Below, piece by piece: positions 11,059 through 55,897 of a stretch of 64,000 nt of DNA. Below the pieces are notes generated by a model, which searched no databases, had not been told where the DNA came from, and saw only the letters and a list, made by a program, of their open reading frames with translations. The translations under genes were made by a program, and so were the position numbers. Positions within the stretch are counted from its first letter, which is position 1; each line of letters starts with the position of its first letter. Source of the DNA: Thermoplasmatota archaeon (lineage in GTDB: Archaea > Thermoplasmatota > E2 > JACPAO01 > JAHFTW01); the NCBI GenBank assembly GCA_041659985.1, contig JBAZXE010000002.1:4714-68713 (forward strand), written 5' to 3'.

Positions 11059-11127
11059 GGATTTCCGGAACTGCCTCGATTGACAGCTTGCCAAATCCGT
11101 CAAATCCTGGGAAAATCCCGCCAATCA
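11059..11127. repeat. GATT/AATC-box dyad element, anchored on the stop codon of the 11125 gene
   Basis: Boxes are GGATTTCCGGAAC 11059, AATCCGTCAAATC 11094 and AATCCCGCCAATC 11114 (20-nt spacing). The coding strand reads TGATTGGCGGGATTT starting at the stop codon. Confidence 0.7.
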
Positions 11128-20391: not shown

Positions 20392-22116
20392 CTAGCCGAG
20401 GGGCGGTGCCTCAGGTCCTTCTCCGGAGGGCAGGACGAACCAGAACACGGAGCCTTTGCCGGGACCCCCGCTTTCGACCCCGATGGCGCCACCGTGCGCC
20501 TCGACGATGCCCTTGGCGATGTAGAGACCGAGCCCCGAACCAGCGCGGGTCCGTTGCATCGTGTCGTGGACCTGGCTGAACGGTTGGAACAGCCGCGGGA
20601 TGGCCTCGGAGCGCAGGCCGATGCCGGTATCCACGACGCGCACGGCGACGCCGCCGCTGGCCCGCTGCACGCCCACCACGACGCGACCGCCTGCCGGGGT
20701 GAACTTGAGTGCGTTGGCGATGAGGTTGTCCAGCACTTGCGCGAGACGACGGGCATCGCCGTCGATCCACATTCCTGCCGGGGTGTTGGCCACCAGAGTG
20801 ACATGGGCCTGCGCGGCGACGCCCTCGAGGGCATGGACGGCGTCGTTGACCGCCGCGGACAGGTCCATCTTGGCGCGGTGCAGGGTCAGGTTGCTGGATT
20901 GGAGCCGGGCGCCGTCCAGCAGGTCTTGCACCAGCAGGGTGAGCCGTTGCACGTTGCGGCCAATGACCGCCAGGGCTTTGCTGCGGCGTTGCGGGTCGGC
21001 GTCCACATCTGGTTGACTCAGCAGCCGCAACTCGACTTGGATTGGGGTAAGGGGGGTGCTCAGCTCATGCGCAGCGGTGTTCATGAACTGGGTGCGCAGG
21101 CGGTTGACCTCGCGCAGGTTCTCGATGTCTTGGACCTGGGCTGCAGCGCGGCGGCGTGCCTCCTCGGCCTCGCGCACCTCCGTCACATCCTGCGTCGTTC
21201 CGATGAGGCGGACGACGCGGCCGGCGGCGTCCCGTTCAGCCCGGGCGCGCCAGGAGCCGAGCCGCATCGTGCCGTCTTGACGCATCAGGCGCGCCTCGAA
21301 CTCGAGCGGGCGGCCGTCCGCAAGGGTGGCCTGCGTGGCGGTTTGCACGGCGGCCCGGTCTTCGGCATGGATGAATCCCAGCAGGTCGTCGAGGTCCTTC
21401 GCCTCCGGTTCGGAGGCAAGGGCGAAGATGCGCCGCATTTCCGTGGAGACCGAAATGGGACGCCCTGGTTCCCAGACCCAGGACCCGACGTGGGCGAGTT
21501 CCTGCGCCAGGGCCAGGCCTGCCTCGCTGGCGGTCAGGCGCGCGTTGGCCTGCGCCAGGTCGCGCGATCGGGCGTCGGCGACGCCTTCACTGCGCAGCAC
21601 GGCGGCCTGGAAGAGGAACATGCAGAGCAGGAAGACGGCGAGGCTTGCGGTGAAGATGATGAGCTCCAGTCCTTGGTAAGCCAAGGCGAAGGCCCCGACT
21701 GCGTCGAGACCGACCAGGAGTCCGTCCACGACAACGAGGACGGTGACCCAAAGGCGGGCGATGGCGGGCGTTGCCAGGAAGAAGGCGTAGGGCAGGTAGG
21801 CGAAGGTCCAAAGGTATCCCGTGTGGCCCCACCCGCCAAGGGCGAACTGCGACGAGACGACAAGGGTCCCGACGGCCAGGATGCAGTGGGTGGCCCAGGT
21901 GTAGTTCCCGGTCCGTTGCAAGACGACGTAGTTGACGCTGATGACCGCGAACGAGACCAGATGGACCAGCGCCAGTGCTGGGACGGCGGCGACCTCGTAG
22001 TACAGCCAAGTCGAGGCGGCGCAGTACAAGAGGGCAATGATCGTGTAGACGTTCACGATGGCCCGCTGCGACCGCGCCAGGACCCCGTCGGCCGCGGTTG
22101 CCGCGGCAGGTTGCAT
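20392..22116 (-). CDS. membrane sensor histidine kinase (multi-TM + PAS + HisKA + HATPase)
   Basis: Trimmed to ATG 22116 (MQPAAATAADGVL). About 6 TM helices, a PAS-like region (GSWVWEPGRP...LIGTTQDVTE), H-box AAHELSTPLTPI, and NLIANALKF...DTGIGL...GSGLGLYIAKGIVEAHGG. Confidence 0.9.
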   Translation of the reverse strand: MQPAAATAADGVLARSQRAIVNVYTIIALLYCAASTWLYYEVAAVPALALVHLVSFAVISVNYVVLQRTGNYTWATHCILAVGTLVVSSQFALGGWGHTGYLWTFAYLPYAFFLATPAIARLWVTVLVVVDGLLVGLDAVGAFALAYQGLELIIFTASLAVFLLCMFLFQAAVLRSEGVADARSRDLAQANARLTASEAGLALAQELAHVGSWVWEPGRPISVSTEMRRIFALASEPEAKDLDDLLGFIHAEDRAAVQTATQATLADGRPLEFEARLMRQDGTMRLGSWRARAERDAAGRVVRLIGTTQDVTEVREAEEARRRAAAQVQDIENLREVNRLRTQFMNTAAHELSTPLTPIQVELRLLSQPDVDADPQRRSKALAVIGRNVQRLTLLVQDLLDGARLQSSNLTLHRAKMDLSAAVNDAVHALEGVAAQAHVTLVANTPAGMWIDGDARRLAQVLDNLIANALKFTPAGGRVVVGVQRASGGVAVRVVDTGIGLRSEAIPRLFQPFSQVHDTMQRTRAGSGLGLYIAKGIVEAHGGAIGVESGGPGKGSVFWFVLPSGEGPEAPPLG

Positions 22117-25905: not shown

Positions 25906-26598
25906 TCAGACCCAGGACAGGATCAAGTCGACGGCCGCGTCGAGGTCAGGCACGATGGCGACGTAGGGGACGCCCTTGCGCCGAGCATGAGCTTCCAGGT
26001 TGGCCGCTGAATAGGTGGTGGCGAGCAAGATGGCGGGGATGCCGAACCCGGCTGCGGCCTGCGCATCCTTGAGTTTGTCCCCAATCATGACGGCGCGGGC
26101 CTTGTTGACGAAGCGGCCCTCGGAGGCAAAGGCGGCGGCGCCATCCTCCAGCATGCCGGAGTTGGGTTTGGTGCGGCGGTGGCTGAGGAGCGGATGCGCG
26201 AAGGCGGCCTCGATGTGGTCGAGTCGGCCGCCATGGGCTTCGAGTTCCGCCTTGAACTGGCGGTGCAGGCGGTGGATCATGCCAGGCGTCGCGGTGAGCA
26301 GGCCGACCCAGGGCTGGTTGGTGGCGAGGCTGGTCTGGATGCCGGGTTGGTTGAGGCGGGCGAAGGCCTCGCGGGCGCCGGGAAGCCAGCGCAGGTTGCG
26401 GTAGAACCGCAATCCAAGGAGCGGGTTGACGTTGAAGACGCCGTCGCGGTCGAGGAACACCGTGAACAGGGATTGTCCGGATTCTTTGCGCGATTTGCCG
26501 GATTTCCTCTTCCCTGCGACCGGTTTCGGCTGGGCTTTGCCCGCCGACCCTTCGATCCTCATCTGTGCGGGTCGGCGCGCGGCCTTTTTGGCCATCAC
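25906..26598 (-). CDS. HAD-IIIA phosphatase (GmhB / histidinol-phosphatase-like) with a basic N-terminal tail
   Basis: FLDRDGVFN...ATNQ...RRTKPNSGML...MIGDKLKDAQAA. Its start overlaps the folE2 stop (GTGATG). Confidence 0.8.
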   Translation of the reverse strand: MMAKKAARRPAQMRIEGSAGKAQPKPVAGKRKSGKSRKESGQSLFTVFLDRDGVFNVNPLLGLRFYRNLRWLPGAREAFARLNQPGIQTSLATNQPWVGLLTATPGMIHRLHRQFKAELEAHGGRLDHIEAAFAHPLLSHRRTKPNSGMLEDGAAAFASEGRFVNKARAVMIGDKLKDAQAAAGFGIPAILLATTYSAANLEAHARRKGVPYVAIVPDLDAAVDLILSWV

Positions 26599-34266: not shown

Positions 34267-34301
34267 CAATCCGGCGAATCGGTCGTCAATCCGGCGAATC
34301 A
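34267..34301. repeat. two perfect direct copies of the GATTCGCCGGATTGA box (half element)
   Basis: The coding (minus) strand reads TGATTCGCCGGATTGA-CGACC-GATTCGCCGGATTGA-GTTGGA-ATG. The TGA is the stop of the AhpD-like gene and the ATG is the lysE-family start. Confidence 0.85.
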
Positions 34302-41784: not shown

Positions 41785-41903
41785 GATTTCACGGATTGCC
41801 CTCCGGGCACTCGCCGCTTTGGATTCCGCAGATTAGGGGAACTCCACAATCTGTGGAATCAGGTCCGCATGACGGCCCGGAGGGAGCGGGAATCTGTGGA
41901 ATC
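41785..41903. repeat. nested inverted repeats, GATTCCGCAGATT variant of the box family
   Basis: GATTTCACGGATT 41785, GCCCTCCGGGC 41798, GATTCCGCAGATT 41822 / AATCTGTGGAATC 41848, CCCGGAGGG 41876, AATCTGTGGAATC 41891. It lies between convergent gene ends. Confidence 0.7.
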
Positions 41904-42349: not shown

Positions 42350-43650
42350 TTCAGGATGCCGTAGCCGATGAGGCGCCAGCGGCCACCGACGCGGCGGCTG
42401 ATGGCGATGCGCGACGCGCCTTCGCTGGCGATGGGCAGCTTGAGGGCAGCCTCGACGGTGTCGTTGGACGCCTTGAGCACGAGACCGACCGTGGTGGCGG
42501 TGCCGGCATTGAGCATGAGCGGCTCCTTGACCTTGATGGGCTCGACGGCCGCCTCGTCCTCGGCGCCGACGACGCGTTCCAGGAGGGTGACCTGCATGGT
42601 GATGCGGTCGAGGGTCTTGGGGAGCTTGCCCGGGTGGCCCAGCACGCGGCCGACGAGGTTGTCCGCCTTCGTGATGGAGGGGTCAAGCTCGGTGCCGATG
42701 GCGATGAGGCCGCCGGGGCCCGCCTTGTCGACCGCCTGGTCGCCGATGAAGAGGCTGGTGATCTTCGTCCTGAGCGGGACGTAGGTGGCCTTGTCCTCCT
42801 TCTCGACGCGCAGGCCGGGCATGATCTCGATCTCGTCGCCGACGCGCAGGCTGCCCTTGCTTAGGGAGCCGCCGAGGACGCCGCCGCGCAGCTTGTCCGG
42901 GCGGGTGCCGGGGCGGTTGATGTCGAAGGAGCGCGCGACCAAGAGGAGGGGGTCTGCCTTGGGGTCGTGCGTCGGCGTCGGGATGACGCGCTGGATGGCC
43001 TCGATGAGGGCCGAGATGTTGACGTCGTGGTGCGCCGAGATGGGGATGACCGGGGCCTTCTCGGCAACGGTGCCCTTGACGAACGCCTGGATTTCCTTGT
43101 AGTTCTCCATGGCGCGCTTCTCGTCCACGAGGTCAATCTTGTTTTGGACGATAACGATGTTCTTGGCGCCGGCAATCTGCAGCGCCATGAGGTGCTCGCG
43201 CGTCTGCGGCTGCGGGCACTTCTCGTTGGCGGCGACCAAGAGAAGGGCGCCGTCCATGAGGGCCGCGCCGGAGAGCATGGTGGCCATCAGGGTCTCGTGG
43301 CCGGGGGCGTCGACGAACGACACGCGGCGCAACTTGCTCGGCTCGCCAACGAGGCGGGCGTCGTCCTTCTTCGTCGTGAAGAGCGCCTTGCCGTCCTTGT
43401 CCTTGCCGGAGAAGAACGTCGTGTCGGCGTAGCCCAGCTTGATGCTGATGCCGCGCTTGATTTCCTCGGAGTGGACGTCGGTCCAGACGCCGGAGAGCGC
43501 CTTGGTCAAGGTCGTCTTGCCGTGGTCGACGTGGCCGATGAGGCCGATGTTGGCCTCGGGCTGCTCGAAGGCCTCGCCCTTGCCGGCGCCGGCGTCCGCC
43601 TTGGACTTGGGCGCCTGCACGGTCTCGGTCGTTGCCTTCTTTGCCGCCAC
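42346..43650 (-). CDS. eif2g: translation initiation factor aIF-2 gamma
   Basis: NIGLIGHVDHGKTTLTKALSG...FVDAPGHE...VQNKIDL. GTG start. Confidence 0.95.
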   Translation of the reverse strand: MAAKKATTETVQAPKSKADAGAGKGEAFEQPEANIGLIGHVDHGKTTLTKALSGVWTDVHSEEIKRGISIKLGYADTTFFSGKDKDGKALFTTKKDDARLVGEPSKLRRVSFVDAPGHETLMATMLSGAALMDGALLLVAANEKCPQPQTREHLMALQIAGAKNIVIVQNKIDLVDEKRAMENYKEIQAFVKGTVAEKAPVIPISAHHDVNISALIEAIQRVIPTPTHDPKADPLLLVARSFDINRPGTRPDKLRGGVLGGSLSKGSLRVGDEIEIMPGLRVEKEDKATYVPLRTKITSLFIGDQAVDKAGPGGLIAIGTELDPSITKADNLVGRVLGHPGKLPKTLDRITMQVTLLERVVGAEDEAAVEPIKVKEPLMLNAGTATTVGLVLKASNDTVEAALKLPIASEGASRIAISRRVGGRWRLIGYGILK

Positions 43651-43700
43651 GGTTTTCGGCAGGCCGGGCTTCGGTTAAAGGGTTCGCTGCCCTCCTGTAG

Positions 43701-43774
43701 GATTGGCCGGATGGCCAGGATTTGCCGGATGGAGTGGACCCAATCCGCCAAATCGGGCCAAATTCGGCAAATCA
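43701..43774. repeat. four-box GATT/AATC dyad element
   Basis: GATTGGCCGGATG 43701 and GATTTGCCGGATG 43719, then AATCCGCCAAATC 43742 and AATTCGGCAAATC 43761. The last box contains the stop (43772-74) of the 32-codon ORF. Confidence 0.8.
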
Positions 43775-43873
43775 GAGGGCCAGGATGAGTTGCGCAGCGG
43801 CGAGCACGCCGACCATCACGGCGATGGTCAGGGTCAGCTCGCCCCGCGACGGGGCGTCGGCAGAGCGGGGCAT
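43772..43873 (-). CDS. candidate 32-aa single-TM micro-protein
   Basis: Too short for the ORF track. ATG 43873: MPRSADAPSRGELTLTIAVMVGVLAAAQLILAL*. Nearly all codons end in G/C, like real genes here. Confidence 0.35.
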   Translation of the reverse strand: MPRSADAPSRGELTLTIAVMVGVLAAAQLILAL

Positions 43874-43934
43874 GAGCGATGCACGTCAGCCGTGAGTATA
43901 TGGGCGGTTTCGGGCAAGACTCGAACGGACCAGC

Positions 43935-44026
43935 GAATTCGCCGGATTGTTGATTCGATTTGCCGGATTGCCTTGCTGCCGCTAGGTCTTGTCAATCCGT
44001 CGAATCCCGGAAAATCCGGCGAATCC
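43935..44026. repeat. four-box GATT/AATC dyad element
   Basis: AATTCGCCGGATT 43936 and GATTTGCCGGATT 43957, then AATCCGTCGAATC 43994 and AATCCGGCGAATC 44013. It ends 9 nt from the rps6e stop. Confidence 0.8.
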
Positions 44027-44033
44027 GAGGGGC

Positions 44034-44438
44034 TTACTTCTTCTCAGCCGGGGCCAGGCTGGCGAAGTGCTCGCCGACGGGCTTGCTGCCGGCCTTGGCG
44101 ACCTTCAGGTTGACCTGGATAATCTCGGCCGAGACGCGGTTGCCGCGGACGGATTGGCGCTTGCGGCGACCGGGGGCGTTGATCGGGTGGTAGCCGACGC
44201 CCTCGGTGAGGAGCAGGCGGCGGCGGGTGGTGCCCTCGAAGTCGGCGCGCATCGGGAAACCGGCCTTGTCGGAGCCGCCCGTGATCTGCAGCTTGTAGCC
44301 GGGCAGGTTGGCGTTGATGCCGTCGACTTGGTCGCCGATCTTCTTGTTGAGGAAGTTCTGGGCGTGGTGGCCGGTCACTTCGAAGTTGAAGGACTTGCCA
44401 GTCGCGGGGTCGTTGATGACGAGCTTGAAGGTGGCCAT
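44034..44438 (-). CDS. rps6e: 30S ribosomal protein eS6
   Basis: Trimmed to MATFKLVINDPATGKSFNFEV...GYKLQITGGSDKAGFPMR. Confidence 0.92.
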   Translation of the reverse strand: MATFKLVINDPATGKSFNFEVTGHHAQNFLNKKIGDQVDGINANLPGYKLQITGGSDKAGFPMRADFEGTTRRRLLLTEGVGYHPINAPGRRKRQSVRGNRVSAEIIQVNLKVAKAGSKPVGEHFASLAPAEKK

Positions 44439-44554
44439 GGGGTCAACTCGCTCCAGGTATTCCGTAGGTTCGTGAGGGGCCTCGCGGATGCGAAACCCCT
44501 TCGAGCCCACAGTTCACCATAGGCGTCTGGAGCAATCCGTCCGACGAGGGGGTC

Positions 44555-45406
44555 CTATATGATGGTGACGGGCGCCGCAACAGGAGTGTCTTCCTCGACG
44601 GGGCCTAGCGCCTCTCCGGGCCAATGCACCCGTGCCGACGGCAGGTCGTACTGCGCATACTCGAACGTCGCAACACCTTGCGTCGTCCCCAACACTGCGG
44701 CGACCCAGGATTCCGGGCTGACGGTCCACGTGCCGACGCCAGTGGCTGCGGTGCGGTTGACGCGCTCGGAGTCCCAAAGGGCGAAGTCGCGGGCGCCGAC
44801 CGTGATGGTGCGAGCTTCGAAGCCATCGGCGGGTTGCGCATCGCCCGTGAGTCGCCCGGTCAGCGAGAAGGCGCCGACTTGGTCGAGGGCGAATGAACCG
44901 GTCCAGCCTTGCGCCGACGGGCCGACGAAGGAGCCTCCGTCGCGCACGGGAAGGTCCCACGGCTTGGCCAGCAAGCGCCAGGAATCGGAGGCGACGAGGA
45001 GGTCCCATCCGTATTCGTAGTGCGCCGAGAAGCGTTCCTCGCGCAGCGCGGCTGGCGGCAAGACCGGTGTGAAGAGGATGCCCGACTGGAGGGAACGCAG
45101 GACGTTCTCTTCACCGAAACCGTAGGCGCATTCCACGGCGCGGAAGCCGAGAGTCGCGGCGCCAGCGAGGGCCGGGGAGGATTCGGGCGGGCTGGGCTCG
45201 AAGCCGGAGGGAAGGTAGGGTTGCAGCGTGGCGGCCGTGACGGGGACCGACCAGGTGATTGATTCGCAGTCTTCCTGCCCCCAGTCAAGGACCCGCGCGG
45301 GTTGCGCCACGCCTTCCGTTGAAGGCAACGGAGACGGTTCCGGCGCCGTGGGCTGCGCGCAGCCAGCCAGCAAGGCCACGACCAGCAGCATCGCGGCGCG
45401 GCGCAT
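44555..45406 (-). CDS. lipoprotein of unknown function (paralog family member 2)
   Basis: Trimmed to MRRAAMLLVVALLAGCAQP. Motifs EDCESITWSV...YLPSGFEPSPP...GFRAVECAYG. Confidence 0.7.
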   Translation of the reverse strand: MRRAAMLLVVALLAGCAQPTAPEPSPLPSTEGVAQPARVLDWGQEDCESITWSVPVTAATLQPYLPSGFEPSPPESSPALAGAATLGFRAVECAYGFGEENVLRSLQSGILFTPVLPPAALREERFSAHYEYGWDLLVASDSWRLLAKPWDLPVRDGGSFVGPSAQGWTGSFALDQVGAFSLTGRLTGDAQPADGFEARTITVGARDFALWDSERVNRTAATGVGTWTVSPESWVAAVLGTTQGVATFEYAQYDLPSARVHWPGEALGPVEEDTPVAAPVTII

Positions 45407-45467
45407 GGCGTGGCCCAGCCGCGGGACCGACGTAAGCGAATTGCCGGAACCGGCCGGGTGCATGCCG

Positions 45468-46226
45468 TCATCGCCGTTGGCCAGGACTTGACGTTTGTGG
45501 CGGCGACGCGCGGGTCCGCGACTCCCCGAGGGCGCGCGGCCGGCCGGCGGTCTTGGTCGCCGCCGCGGCCACGCCCTGGTGGGCCTCGAGGATGCCGGCG
45601 AAGCGCTGCATGGCGTGCTGCTCGGCCTTGCGCAGGTGCTCCTCGAACGTTGAGCGGGCCAATCCGACCCGCGTGGCCAACTCGCGGGCCTCCACCTTGC
45701 GCGGGACGTCGTAGTATCCGGTGCGGACGGCCAGTTGCAAGGCTTCGAGTTGCCGGCGCGTCAGGCCGGCGGCCAAGTCCGCGACCGGGACCACGGCTCC
45801 GACGGAGTCGTTGGGCACATCGGAGGCCGCCTGCAACAGGGTCGTGCCGAAACGCCCGAGGCGGCGCACGAGGACGCGCAGCCGCGCCTCGGTGGGCGCG
45901 AGGATGGCGTACTGTTCCCAGCCGTCGCGGTAGACGGCGGGCCATAAGATGGTGCAACCCGCCGCCAGGATCGTCGGGATGACGCCAATTGGCGGGTTGC
46001 GCGTGCGTACGAGGGCGGAATTCGCTGTGCGGCCCATGACGTCGAACGGCGTGAGGCCGTCGGATTCGATGTGGCGCACCACGCGTTCGACTTCGGCGGG
46101 TTCGCCTTGCACGAGCACGAGGTCGCATTCCTCATCGGAGGAGACCTGCATGGCGACCGTTCCAGGGCGCAGGCTCGTCATGAGACAGCCGTCGTGCTGG
46201 ACCCGCAGGTCCGCCTTGACCACCAT
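45468..46226 (-). CDS. HTH_10 (Bat-like) transcriptional regulator
   Basis: Trimmed to ATG 46226. C-terminus LTRRQLEALQLAVRTGYYDVPRKVEARELATRVGLARSTFEEHLRKAE. Confidence 0.8.
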   Translation of the reverse strand: MVVKADLRVQHDGCLMTSLRPGTVAMQVSSDEECDLVLVQGEPAEVERVVRHIESDGLTPFDVMGRTANSALVRTRNPPIGVIPTILAAGCTILWPAVYRDGWEQYAILAPTEARLRVLVRRLGRFGTTLLQAASDVPNDSVGAVVPVADLAAGLTRRQLEALQLAVRTGYYDVPRKVEARELATRVGLARSTFEEHLRKAEQHAMQRFAGILEAHQGVAAAATKTAGRPRALGESRTRASPPQTSSPGQRR

Positions 46227-46291
46227 GGCCTGGCTACGCCCGTGCAGGCTTCTTGAGCGCTGTGTTGGACGGACTCGCAGCTGCGCGGCGG

Positions 46292-47143
46292 TCAGGCCGA
46301 GCGTGCCGCGCGGCGGCGACGCAGCATGGGGCGGAGGTACCAGATGGCCATGCCGCCAACGTAGAGCGCCCAGACGGCAAGGTCGAGGACGGCGGGCGTG
46401 GCGCGGTAGCCGAGGACGCCGTAGAGCAGGCCTCCGGCAACACAGTTGACCGTCACGTTGTCGCCGCACTTGTGCGGAAGGAAGCCGCTCCAGTCCCACG
46501 CCTGCGGTGTCTCGGGCACCCAACCGACCTCTTCGCCTTCGTGGGCCGCGTAGCCCAGCATGCCGCCCGCCACCAGGATAAGGAAGACGCCGGTGACGGC
46601 GAAGAATCCCTGGACGCTGAGCTTGACGGTGCCACGGAAGAGCAGGAAGGCCAGCACGGCACTGATGGCGATGCCAACGAGGAGACCCAGCAGGATCTCG
46701 GCGGGCGTCGCTTGGCCGGCCTGGGCGGCGATGAAGACCACGGTTTCAAGACCCTCGCGGACCACGATGACGAAGGCGAGACCGAGGAGGACGGAGGAAC
46801 GGCCGGCAAGGACGGCGTCCTTCGCCTTGGCGTGCAGGGTCCCCATCGCGTGCTGGGTGTGTTTGTACATCCAGACAATCATGTAGGTCAGAATGAGGAC
46901 GGCGAGGGCGCTGGCGGCGGCCTCGAAGGCGGCGCCGAAATCCTCGGAGAGTTGGTCGGCGAGGCGGTAGGTCAGCACGCCCACCGCGATTGACACGGCC
47001 ACACCGAGCAGGCCGCCGATGAGGATGGACCGGCGGGCTTCAGGGTGGCCGAGTTTGACGACGATGCCCGCGAGGATGCCGCAGACCAGCAGGGCCTCGA
47101 GGGATTCGCGCAGGGCGACAATAGCGATGCCAGCGAAGGACAT
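46292..47143 (-). CDS. FTR1/EfeU-family iron permease
   Basis: Trimmed to MSFAGIAIVALRESLEALLV (REXLE 1), with a second motif VVREGLETVVF. Confidence 0.88.
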   Translation of the reverse strand: MSFAGIAIVALRESLEALLVCGILAGIVVKLGHPEARRSILIGGLLGVAVSIAVGVLTYRLADQLSEDFGAAFEAAASALAVLILTYMIVWMYKHTQHAMGTLHAKAKDAVLAGRSSVLLGLAFVIVVREGLETVVFIAAQAGQATPAEILLGLLVGIAISAVLAFLLFRGTVKLSVQGFFAVTGVFLILVAGGMLGYAAHEGEEVGWVPETPQAWDWSGFLPHKCGDNVTVNCVAGGLLYGVLGYRATPAVLDLAVWALYVGGMAIWYLRPMLRRRRAARSA

Positions 47144-47210
47144 TTCGGGGCCTCGAAATCGCCGAGGAGAGAACCCTACTTGAATCTTAGGGGAGCCGAA
47201 ATCAGCATTG

Positions 47211-47307
47211 GATTCGCCGGATTGTTCCTTGATTCGCCGGAACGGTTTTCTCCCTTGGACCGAGCCCCAATTCAATCCGGCCAATCGTTTGGCAATCCGT
47301 TGAATCA
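47211..47307. repeat. four-box GATT/AATC dyad element, stop-codon anchored
   Basis: GATTCGCCGGATT 47211 and GATTCGCCGGAAC 47231, then AATCCGGCCAATC 47274 and AATCCGTTGAATC 47294, both pairs with 20-nt spacing. The coding strand of the DtxR-like gene ends CAC TGA TTCAACGGATT. Confidence 0.85.
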
Positions 47308-47760
47308 GTGGGGGTGAATCTGTTCCCTTACTTTGCGGGTGGTGTCGAACTTGTGGCCGAGGCGTTCGTTGAGGAAGCCTTCACACCACGCCTCCAGTTC
47401 CTTGGGCAGGGTGTGCTCCATGTCGCAGGCGGCCTCGTGCGCGGCCCCGTGGTCCATGCCGCAGACTTCCTGCAGGAACGCCTGCATGATGCGGTGCTTC
47501 TCCAGCGTGCGTTTTCCGACGGCGCGGCCGGAAGCCGTGAGGACCACGCCCTTGTACGGCTCGTATGTGACGTGTCCGGCCTTCTCCAGTTTCTGGATCA
47601 TGTCGGTGACGGACGGTGGCGCGACCTTCAGGTGCTTGGCGATCTCGCCGGTGCGCGCCGGTTCCCCCGCTTCCTCCAGGCGGTAGATGGTCTCCAGGTA
47701 CTCCTGCATCTGCTCGGAGACCGTGTGGTGCGACACCAAGCCCACCGAGGAGTTCGGCAT
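47305..47760 (-). CDS. DtxR/IdeR/MntR-family metal-dependent repressor
   Basis: Trimmed to ATG 47760. YLETIYRLEEAGEPARTGEIAKHLKVAPPSVTDMIQKLEKAGHV...AACDMEH. Confidence 0.9.
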   Translation of the reverse strand: MPNSSVGLVSHHTVSEQMQEYLETIYRLEEAGEPARTGEIAKHLKVAPPSVTDMIQKLEKAGHVTYEPYKGVVLTASGRAVGKRTLEKHRIMQAFLQEVCGMDHGAAHEAACDMEHTLPKELEAWCEGFLNERLGHKFDTTRKVREQIHPH

Positions 47761-47781
47761 ACCTAATCCTGACGCCCTGCG

Positions 47782-47850
47782 GATTCGCCGGAGTTCAGCG
47801 AGATTTGACGGATTCCTCAATCCGCAAATCGATTCAGAATCCGGAAATCA
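47782..47850. repeat. four-box GATT/AATC dyad element, stop-codon anchored
   Basis: GATTCGCCGGAGT 47782 and GATTTGACGGATT 47802, then AATCCGCAAATC 47819 and AATCCGGAAATC 47838. The ACAD coding strand ends CCC TGA TTTCCGGATT. Confidence 0.85.
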
Positions 47851-49005
47851 GGGTGTGGCTGGGAACGTGATGTCCGGCATGACGGCGCGCTTGATCACGT
47901 CGCGCTGCATCTGAGTCGTCTCGCCGACGAACCACAGCGCGCGCGAATCGCGGGCGAAGCGCTCCGTGCCGCCTTCGCGCATGAAGCCGGTGCCGCCCTG
48001 GATGCGGATGGCCTGCCGCGTCATGGGGACCGCCATCTCATTGGCGAACGCCTTGGCGCGGGCAGCCCACAACAGGCCGTCGTCGGCTTCAAGGTGGGCG
48101 GCCGCCGCCAGCGTGAGGGCGAGGCTGGCCTCGACGTTGACGTCGATGAGGGTGATGCCGTCGGAGACCGCCTGGTACGTCCCGATGGGCGAACCGAACT
48201 GGATGCGTGTGGCCGCGAAGGCGGCCGCGGCCGCATAGGCGCCCGCCACGCAGCCCGTGATGGCGGCCGCGGCGGCGACCTGCAACCAGGCGCGCGAGGA
48301 GCGCAGGAGGTCGAATCCTTTGCCGACCTCGCCGAGGCGGTGTGCGTCGGGCACGACGACACCCGAGAAGTAGACGGTGCGGATTCCTGCACCGCGCAAA
48401 CCCATGAGGGGTTCGTTGCGGCCGAGAGAGACACCCGTAGCGTCAGCCGGGACGTACAACAACGTGGGGCCCGATGGGTTGCCCTTGCCGGCCTGCACGT
48501 TGGCAAGGACGACGAAGTGCTTGGCATCCGAGGCGGCGATGCCCCAGACCTTCTGGCCAGTGACCTTGAACCCGACCTTGTCGGGCACGGCCATGGTGCC
48601 GATGCTTCCGGCGTCGGAGCCGTGCGCCTCCTCCGTCGCCAGGACGGCCACCAGTTCGCCTGCGGCGGCCTTGGGGGCCAGTTCGGCGGCGACCGCGGGG
48701 TTGGCGAGAAGGCAGCGCAGGCCGAGGCCGTTGTGGACGGCGAGAATGGCCGCGGTGTTCGGGCAGACCTTGGCGAGTTCGTGGACCGCTAAGGCGTAGG
48801 CCGTCGGGCCCGCGCCGGCTCCGCCAAGCTCGGTGGGGAGTGTGAGGGCGGTGAGCCCGAGACCCGCGGCGGCTTGGATGACGTCGGCGGGGAAGCGGTC
48901 ATTGCGATCGAAGTCGGAGGCCTGCTCGAGCCCGATGGTGGCCGTGGCGAACTCGCTTACGACCTTGCGGATCAACTGCTCATCGTCGGAGAGCGTGTAC
49001 GGCAT
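47848..49005 (-). CDS. acyl-CoA dehydrogenase
   Basis: Full-length ACAD pattern: ...ATEEAHGSDAGS...GQKVWGIA...IQGGTGFMRE...RDSRALWFVGETTQMQ. Confidence 0.9.
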   Translation of the reverse strand: MPYTLSDDEQLIRKVVSEFATATIGLEQASDFDRNDRFPADVIQAAAGLGLTALTLPTELGGAGAGPTAYALAVHELAKVCPNTAAILAVHNGLGLRCLLANPAVAAELAPKAAAGELVAVLATEEAHGSDAGSIGTMAVPDKVGFKVTGQKVWGIAASDAKHFVVLANVQAGKGNPSGPTLLYVPADATGVSLGRNEPLMGLRGAGIRTVYFSGVVVPDAHRLGEVGKGFDLLRSSRAWLQVAAAAAITGCVAGAYAAAAAFAATRIQFGSPIGTYQAVSDGITLIDVNVEASLALTLAAAAHLEADDGLLWAARAKAFANEMAVPMTRQAIRIQGGTGFMREGGTERFARDSRALWFVGETTQMQRDVIKRAVMPDITFPATP

Positions 49006-55007: not shown

Positions 55008-55802
55008 GTGCAATCCTGTGCTGTGCGAGCGTGGACTGTTGCCGTGGCCGGGCTTTGTTTGGCCCTTGCGTCGAGCGGGTGTCTTGGCTCCGGCGGCGGC
55101 CTGTTCGGCGACCAGCCAGGCCCGCGTGATTTCGTCTCCAGTGCCGACTACACCAAGTGGGTCATCGAAGTGGACTTCGTCCAGGGCCAGGCCCCACCTG
55201 CAGGCGTCCTCGATTTCGTGAAGGGACGCCTGGCTGCGGTCGTCGACAAGCCGGACGGGATCGAGGTGCGCATCGACGAGACGCTCCCCACCCGCGGCGG
55301 GACATGGACGCAGAACGACCTGTTGGACCTCAGTGACGCGCACTTCCAGGCCGACACGTCGGGGAAAACGGCCGCCATCCACCTGCTGTTTGTGGACGGC
55401 TCCTACGACCAGGCCAACGTCCTGGGCGCTACCTTCAGCCGGGAGAGTGCCACCGGCCAAGTGGTCTCGACTGGCCCCATCGTCATTTTCTCGCAAGCCA
55501 TCCGCGACGGCTGCGGCCCAATCTGCCTTAGCGGCACGACGCCGGCGTTCCGCTCGGTCATCGTCCATGAATTCGGCCATGCCATCGGCCTCGTCGACAA
55601 CGGCATCGCCATGGTGCGCCCGCATGAGGCATCCACTTGCGGGAATCCGCCCCGGCCCGACGAGGGACACTCCTCGAACAGCGAATCCGTGATGAATTGC
55701 GACGTCGAGACCAGCGGCATTTTCAACCTGGCCAATGAGCCACCGACGGAGTTCGACTCCAATGACAAGGCCGACTTGTGCGCCGCCGGCGGTCGCTGCT
55801 GA
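55008..55802 (+). CDS. lipoprotein with a metzincin-type zinc site (HEFGHAIGLVD)
   Basis: GTG 55008/55023. Signal VAVAGLCLALASSGC. HEFGHAIGLVDNG = HExxHxxGxxD (snapalysin-like third ligand). Several Cys. Confidence 0.65.
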   Translation: MQSCAVRAWTVAVAGLCLALASSGCLGSGGGLFGDQPGPRDFVSSADYTKWVIEVDFVQGQAPPAGVLDFVKGRLAAVVDKPDGIEVRIDETLPTRGGTWTQNDLLDLSDAHFQADTSGKTAAIHLLFVDGSYDQANVLGATFSRESATGQVVSTGPIVIFSQAIRDGCGPICLSGTTPAFRSVIVHEFGHAIGLVDNGIAMVRPHEASTCGNPPRPDEGHSSNSESVMNCDVETSGIFNLANEPPTEFDSNDKADLCAAGGRC

Positions 55803-55897
55803 TTCGCCGGATTCGCCGAGGATTTGGCGGATAATGGAGCAGTCTTGGCCAACCGACGCAGCCGAATCCCTCGAATCGAGTTGAAATCCGGCAAATC
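55800..55897. repeat. four-box GATT/AATC dyad element, stop-codon anchored (plus-strand gene)
   Basis: TGATTCGCCGGATT, where TGA 55800-02 is the metzincin stop. Boxes at 55801 and 55821, then AATCCCTCGAATC 55865 and AATCCGGCAAATC 55885, with 20-nt spacings. It ends 12 nt before the next GTG start. Confidence 0.85.

Follow-up and report, generated by a model that had tools for sequence, protein, structure and literature searches.

Dyads flanking an archaeal dtxR gene as probable gene-less copies of a REPIN-like, nuclease-associated palindromic repeat

The two dyad elements that flank a gene for a DtxR-like repressor in a Thermoplasmatota archaeon are, with a probability that we put at roughly 0.7, gene-less copies of REPIN-like palindromic repeats that are associated with a small nuclease. 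The new observation is that the four nuclease genes in this genome all lie in dyad loops, that each of these dyads represents a box family of its own, and that one of these families is that of the boxes flanking dtxR. The assembly comprises 2.35 Mb on 151 contigs, has a G+C content of 66.6% and is 88% complete; it is called G000 in the comparisons with other genomes, and "the window" denotes the whole stretch of 64,000 nucleotides that was analysed. The presence of a ribosomal S6e gene (rps6e) in the window identifies the host as an archaeon.

The dtxR locus and its two dyads

The sequence-only reading had described two structured elements, at 47211-47307 and at 47782-47850, which start in the stop codons of the preceding genes, and both the coordinates and the stop anchoring were verified. 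The two dyads are the same structured element. Each is built from one 13-nt box with the consensus GATT[CGT]G[AC]CGGATT, which is present twice in forward and twice in reverse orientation. Each overlaps the TGA of the gene upstream (ACAD and the dtxR-like gene, respectively), the GA of this stop codon being common to the outer box, and each occupies the gap from the stop codon to the promoter of the next gene. On the minus strand the downstream element has the order T-GATTCAACGGATT, GATTGGCCGGATT, a 30-nt loop, GTTCCGGCGAATC and AATCCGGCGAATC, and all four boxes are good. The upstream element is a degenerate version of this architecture. The identities of the three minus-strand genes, ACAD, DtxR-like and FTR1, hold according to domain matches (Table 1). 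The RNA fold z-scores of the two copies are modest (-1.5 to -3.3), while neighbouring copies reach -3.7 to -5.2, and a search of positions 43000-49000 with the Rfam covariance models (E <= 1) gave no relevant match.

Table 1. Positions of genes, boxes and signals at the dtxR locus (window numbering) and of the gene-bearing element on contig C13 (contig numbering)
Feature	Position	Strand	Remarks
rps6e	44034-44510		Ribosomal S6e gene
FTR1 iron permease gene	46292-47143	-	
Second TGA (in cTGAtt)	47202-47204	-	Far junction of the insert; aligns with the sole TGA of the empty site in G003
Downstream element, box 4	47211-47223	+	GATTCGCCGGATT, exact consensus; minus-strand reading AATCCGGCGAATC
Downstream element, box 3	47231-47243	+	GATTCGCCGGAAC; minus-strand reading GTTCCGGCGAATC
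Downstream element, central loop	47244-47273		30 nt; unconserved among copies
Downstream element, box 2	47274-47286	-	GATTGGCCGGATT, exact consensus
Downstream element, box 1	47294-47306	-	GATTCAACGGATT; 2-nt overlap with the dtxR stop TGA at 47305-47307
DtxR-family repressor ORF, as called in the sequence-only reading	47305-47760	-	Fe_dep_repress and Fe_dep_repr_C domains
Putative TATA-like motif	47760-47767	-	ATTAGGTA; ~28-30 nt before the start codon, conserved in every congener; outside the element
Upstream element, box 4	47782-47794	+	GATTCGCCGGAGT; minus-strand reading ACTCCGGCGAATC
Upstream element, box 3	47802-47814	+	GATTTGACGGATT, exact consensus; minus-strand reading AATCCGTCAAATC
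Upstream element, central loop	47815-47818		4 nt; "tight" arm-gap class
Upstream element, box 2	47819-47830	-	GATTTGCGGATT; 12 nt, one base under consensus
Upstream element, box 1	47838-47849	-	GATTTCCGGATT; 12 nt, one base under consensus; 2-nt overlap with the ACAD TGA
ACAD stop codon TGA	47848-47850	-	GA = first two bases of the outer box
ACAD gene	47848-49005	-	Matches to three ACAD domains
C13 element, ++ arm	21236-21268		Encloses the nuclease gene together with the -- arm
C13 element, nuclease gene	21251-21634	-	128 aa; TIGR04256 (E = 1e-36), PF13366 (PDDEXK_3; E = 3e-34)
C13 element, -- arm	21698-21732		Encloses the nuclease gene together with the ++ arm

The start codon of dtxR had been placed at ATG 47760, and this assignment probably has to be revised. 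A TTTAGGTA-like motif is present about 28-30 nt upstream of the ATG or GTG start of dtxR in all 12 congeners. Because ATG 47760 lies inside this conserved TATA-like motif and the starts of the congeners lie about 28-30 nt downstream of it, translation of dtxR probably begins at TTG 47739 or GTG 47736, on an mRNA that is probably leaderless. The sequence-only reading had also considered a promoter function of the elements. However, the TATA-like motif and the leader of FTR1 are both located outside the dyads and have been conserved where relatives have no element, and therefore the dyads supply no promoter. The operator of DtxR/IdeR is the 19-bp palindrome TTAGGTTAGCCTAACCTAA, and the box GATTNGNCGGATT does not match it, as the sequence-only reading had noted. 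Outside the element, a TTAGGTATGCCGAAC motif at 47766-47752 resembles half an iron box (partial match). At 47748-47766 lies TTAGGTATGCCGAACTCCT, which is similar to the left half-site of an IdeR/DtxR iron box; congeners have this motif conserved ahead of dtxR too, and this segment is a candidate for an autoregulatory operator that overlaps the promoter. The leader of FTR1 contains the palindrome ATTTCGAGGCCCCGAAAT(-G) at 47141-47160, a possible operator or leader hairpin that overlaps the start codon and has been conserved in three congeners (G003, G009 and G007).

The locus was compared in 12 genomes of the same genus. The closest relative, G003, has a DtxR that is 94% identical and has kept the dtxR-FTR1 arrangement, but its site is empty: cacTGA is followed directly by ggtttcgacctccc in G003, in contrast to cacTGA, 105 nt and tttcggctcccc in the window genome. 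The sequence (c)TGA(tt) is repeated at both junctions of the insert, and no target-site duplication is definable beyond this repeat at the one clean junction. G003 offers the only clean empty-site comparison at this locus, and its state could also have arisen by a precise loss via the (c)TGA(tt) direct repeat. G009 has arms of another box family at the dtxR-FTR1 site, and three other congeners have short, empty spacers. Between ACAD and dtxR an element was found in none of the 12 congeners, G003 included; the ACAD stop codon is TAG in G003 and TGA in the window genome, with an identical protein end (...PATP). The dtxR-FTR1 pair of relatives without an element shows that the dyads are dispensable for gene order.

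That one gene is bracketed by two elements is correct as an arrangement, but it does not exceed chance. Elements lie in both flanking spacers of 3-4 genes in the genome, versus 2.1-2.8 expected (permutation P ~0.33). Insulator or terminator-plus-promoter modules serving dtxR, as proposed from the sequence, are thus unsupported, because about 110 copies lie beside unrelated genes and two-sided flanking is at chance level.

A dispersed box family at gene ends

The boxes of both dyads belong to a family that is dispersed over the genome, family A. It comprises 157 exact and 99 one-mismatch boxes (256 good boxes), versus at most one exact and 5-9 one-mismatch boxes, at most 10 in total, in the shuffle control. 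The boxes group into about 110 elements, 35 of which are full dyads with two forward boxes followed by two reverse boxes (++--), the others being partial; the order --++ does not occur among the 110 elements. Boxes on the same strand are spaced by 19-21 nt, the two arms are separated by about 4 nt or by 20-50 nt, and the GATT half-sites inside a box are 9 nt apart. Further copies in the window were found at 34268-34300, 43701-43773, 43936-44025, 55801-55897, 11094-11126 and 26471-26504, the last of which sits within a called ORF; two copies in the window lie on either side of a short spacer that separates rps6e from the gene after it.

Family-A elements are present in about 84 of about 2,250 intergenic regions and mostly at the 3' ends of unrelated genes. 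They occupy 58 tandem, 21 convergent and 5 divergent regions, versus 70%, 15% and 15%, respectively, of all intergenic regions in the genome (chi-square ~9.8, P ~0.008). At 36 of about 100 3'-end junctions the box overlaps a TGA by exactly 2 nt (T plus the GA of the box), and most of the others are at most 9 nt away; stops that are not overlapped are often directly adjoined by an extended box, cgGATT. Five pairs of convergent genes have a single dyad between them, each end of which overlaps one of the two stops. The frequency of a preceding T is 52% for outer boxes facing a 3' end, 19% for outer boxes facing a 5' end and 10% for inner boxes (chi-square ~15), and this T lies outside the element proper.

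What is conserved is the sequence of the box, not base pairing and not the element as a whole. At the variable box positions 5 and 7 agreement is no higher for paired than for unpaired boxes, so that covariation was not detected, the spacers and loops of different copies have no similarity in length or sequence, and the left and right spacers are not complementary. Judged by its pattern, this conservation looks like that of a protein-recognition site. Intrinsic terminators of the archaeal type, with an oligo-T stretch of at least 5 T, do not characterise the element-bearing 3' ends: a T5 run within 150 nt after the stop is present at 3.6% of them and at 3.9% of the 3' ends without an element, a comparison that is made uninformative by the rarity of oligo-T terminators throughout the genome, where T5 runs follow only 2.4% of the stops.

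Further box families are found at similar places. The orthologous 3' ends of G003 often bear dyads of other families or longer inserts. For the element at 55801-55897 and its counterpart G003:C325:4645-4770 the loops are homologous (local score 13 versus a shuffle mean of 6, P ~0.001), but the boxes are those of each genome's own family (GATTCGCCGGATT versus GATTCAGCCGATT). Homologous loops between different box families suggest that dyad arms can be rewritten in place while the loop is retained. At 41785-41903 a variant-family dyad (GATTTCACGGATT / GATTCCACAGATT) lies between convergent genes, and the G003 ortholog has a dyad of CACCGATT boxes. A family of palindromes of about 75 nt, with about 46 loci in G000 (for example C10:22653, C4:45627 and C2:68029), has the form TGACGAC..AAACAGGGATTACGGGGA..ACGGGGA or its mirror image and starts at stop codons; a partner nuclease was not found for it in the 88%-complete G000, and similar arms occur on a nuclease gene of G005. 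The abundant family ACAGGGATTACGGGGA has no partner nuclease in the 88%-complete genome. The sequence CCCCCCCC is among the most enriched intergenic 8-mers, with 64 of its 83 genomic occurrences being intergenic, and at G000:C56:~1040-1070 a run of about 30 C adjoins a family-C dyad.

GxxExxY nuclease genes in the loops of dyads

The whole genome was searched for partner genes, i.e., genes that lie between forward and reverse arms. One family-A element with exact family-A arms, G000:C13:21236-21732 (L064:1453-1949), encloses a gene with matches to PF13366 and TIGR04256 (Table 1); the outer box of this element and the TGA stop of the host gene upstream overlap. A gene-bearing copy with the same boxes is therefore present in the same genome as the gene-less copies beside dtxR. 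In total the genome contains four PF13366 genes of the GxxExxY type (PD-(D/E)XK), one of them partial, and each lies in the loop of a dyad. The four genes have four box families: family A, CGCAGATT, CACGGAA, and a hybrid of ACGGATT and CACGGAA. Gene-less dyads of the latter three families are likewise abundant at the ends of genes.

This association extends through the genus. PF13366 genes are present in 13 of 13 genus genomes, with one to eight copies each, versus one of 18 genomes from 17 other sampled genera. Inverted box arrays flank 26 of the 29 PF13366 genes of the genus with scores above the 95th percentile of a control with 300 random positions (mean 9.4, 95th percentile 11.5, maximum 13.5), and 24 exceed the control maximum. 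Each array at the 26 loci has two to four boxes in tandem, about 10 nt long each, and the scores are 12.5-37. The pattern of arms from tandem boxes with a phase of about 8-10 nt, one family per nuclease gene and an excess of gene-less copies is thus recovered, and the same gene-in-dyad layout was found for four bacterial homologues, from Chromatiales, Bryobacteraceae, Ginsengibacter and Vicinamibacterales.

The box sequence varies from one nuclease gene to the next, and the families are expanded in a genome-specific manner. The arm motif CACGAATTNCACGAA of the nuclease genes of G001 and G009 has 161 and 41 copies, respectively, in these two genomes, but 0-7 in others; exact family-A boxes number 157 in the window genome versus 0-27 in congeners, and G003 has the private sister box GATTCAGCCGATT with 18 copies. 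Nucleases from different genomes are more similar when they have the same box type (56.8% versus 50.4% identity, permutation P = 0.0002). In G000 and G006 a nuclease gene is located between the same two host genes, but the arms differ.

The catalytic D..ExK residues and the GxxExxY motif are invariant in the alignment of the nucleases. An AlphaFold2 model of the protein has a pLDDT of 90.8, and in a fold search the closest structures were Cas4 SSO0001, the nuclease domain of AddAB, lambda exonuclease and RecE, with TM scores of 0.5-0.6; a search of PDB sequences with the nuclease profile yielded no homologue. PDDEXK_3 is listed as a family of unknown function (PMC3424549), and in the literature on GxxExxY, PDDEXK_3 and TIGR04256 we found no paper that ties the family to repeats. 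The invariant D..ExK motif, the predicted Cas4/RecB-like fold and the fact that similarity follows box type are indirect hints that a GxxExxY protein may bind or cleave its cognate boxes. Two simple origins of the gene-less copies were discarded: their loops are not recognisable as decayed remnants of nuclease genes, because they match the gene no better than shuffled sequences do, and simple copying and pasting of whole elements is not evident, because the copies share neither spacer nor loop sequence.

Known repeat systems and alternative explanations

The best-known counterparts are the REP, BIME and REPIN repeats with their RAYT proteins (PMC3116915, PMC3733652, bioRxiv 10.1101/2021.07.10.451892). 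In both cases the repeats are extragenic palindromes of about 100 bp with about 100 copies, prefer 3' ends, and have one partner gene per repeat family, which is flanked by its own repeats. REPINs have been described as conserved arms around a variable spacer (bioRxiv 10.1101/2021.07.10.451892), and this organization is found in the family-A elements, with 110 elements and 35 full dyads. It has also been reported that the termini of bacterial GTAG REPs often provide the stop codon of a flanking ORF, so that stop codons supplied by repeat termini are not new (PMC3733652). However, the partner here is a PD-(D/E)XK nuclease instead of a Y1 HUH transposase, the arms are arrays of phased 13-nt boxes instead of a single short hairpin, and a conserved GTAG or CGTC tag is missing, the family-A box beginning with GATT. 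RAYT/IS200 proteins (Y1 HUH, PF01797) had no match in the 88%-complete G000 and 14 relatives, while control genomes were positive. Membership in the REP-RAYT family is ruled out by the absence of both RAYT and the GTAG tag. The elements seem to work like REP/REPIN repeats, yet stand outside that family, and the best classification is as palindromic repeats of archaea with a PD-(D/E)XK partner.

Three further systems share some of these features. The site-specific Ssn ssDNA nucleases (GIY-YIG) and their NTS/SRM repeats also combine a small nuclease gene with a short repeat, which occurs hundreds of times in the vicinity of genes, and each homologue has its own sequence specificity (PMC11893778), but the nuclease superfamily and the repeat architecture are different, and the GxxExxY proteins are known here from sequence and predicted fold. 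The intervening sequences in the 23S rRNA of Coxiella and Leptospira have terminal inverted repeats that form a long stem, a small ORF may occupy the loop, gene-less and gene-bearing forms exist, and a selfish origin has been proposed (PMC4990558). In contrast, the copies described here lie between protein-coding genes instead of in rRNA helices, they are dispersed in about 100 copies, and their ORF encodes a PD-(D/E)XK protein and not the S23p four-helix bundle. MITEs derived from IS elements are, like the present copies, short non-autonomous inverted repeats that far outnumber a gene-bearing parent, but the copies here share only the boxes. This assignment was rejected, because there is no shared internal sequence, no fixed target-site duplication and no recognised transposase.

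Taken together, we favour the following reading. The dyads form a dispersed repeat, each arm of which consists of two 13-nt boxes about 20 nt apart around a variable loop, and this repeat would be the cognate partner of the small GxxExxY nuclease (PF13366 / TIGR04256). The nuclease may recognise the phased boxes, in which half-sites recur about once per helical turn (9 nt within a box, about 20 nt between boxes), and may spread the arms or homogenise them. Copies may persist at stop codons since they are tolerated there in a compact genome, where selection would remove insertions in promoters or further upstream of the stop; alternatively, the stop region may be the insertion target. The pair around dtxR would then be two independent copies without a dtxR-specific role. 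Transcribed dyads could form 3' hairpins as a side effect, so that a host role as transcript-end hairpins is possible. Some observations do not fit easily: the sharp 2-nt overlap with stop codons could reflect selection for a host function, and the in-place rewriting of arms that the loop homology suggests is not explained by plain transposition.

One alternative is that the dyads have been selected by the host as transcript-end modules (terminators, RNA-stabilising 3' hairpins or insulators), positioned right behind stop codons in a lineage without oligo-T terminators, and that the two copies at this locus uncouple dtxR from ACAD and FTR1. The strong 3'-end bias with dyads flush with stops agrees with it, as do the enrichment in convergent and the depletion in divergent regions, and the ++-- symmetry presents the same boxes first to transcripts from either direction. 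Because T5 runs follow so few stops, another 3'-end signal might be needed, and a 3' site can carry one box family in one species and another family in a second. However, family A is present in only a small fraction of the intergenic regions, dtxR-FTR1 of G003 has no dyad, pairing is not maintained by covariation, the two copies have modest fold z-scores, two-sided flanking is at chance level, and the partnership with a nuclease gene is left unexplained. We regard this explanation as improbable. A similarly small chance is given to the view that the dyads are primarily host or neutral structures and that GxxExxY genes are selfish cargo, which homes into the loops and does not spread gene-less copies. 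It would account for the location of every nuclease gene in a loop, for gene-less loops that share no sequence with the gene-bearing copy, and for the nuclease gene of G000 and G006 that has the same host neighbours and different arms, but it is hard to reconcile with one nuclease gene per box family, with the expansion of box families specifically in genomes that have the matching nuclease gene, and with nuclease similarity that follows box type. That the boxes are operators of an iron-related or global regulator and that the arrays are part of the regulation of dtxR and FTR1 is very improbable. The phasing of the GATT half-sites by about 9-10 bp and the symmetric box arrays would suit a protein that binds double-stranded DNA; yet boxes are located downstream of the stops of unrelated genes (rps6e, for example), orthologous loci lack them, they do not resemble the DtxR/IdeR box, and candidate promoter and operator motifs are present outside the boxes.

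The repeat-nuclease reading can be widened, albeit tentatively and with more doubt than confidence. GxxExxY proteins might be box-specific Cas4/RecB-like nucleases that spread, maintain and even rewrite in place REPIN-like repeats in Archaea and Bacteria. The present genus would have several pairs of a nuclease and its private box in each species, and the repeats would be driven to exact gene ends, with the stop codon in common, where they would perhaps have become the usual transcript-end hairpins of the lineage.

For the locus itself, the appearance of a special insulation of the iron repressor dtxR is not supported, and its likely promoter and start codon are now placed elsewhere. The literature on REPINs states that they are undetected in archaea, and the genus studied here would be an archaeal genus with REPIN-like repeats, which are tied not to RAYT but to GxxExxY/PDDEXK_3, a large prokaryotic family without a listed function. 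The sequence-specific recognition of phased short boxes would be a first testable hypothesis for this family. In addition, the repeats may serve as a system for asking why selfish repeats end exactly at stop codons and how the family of the arms can change while the loop stays in place.
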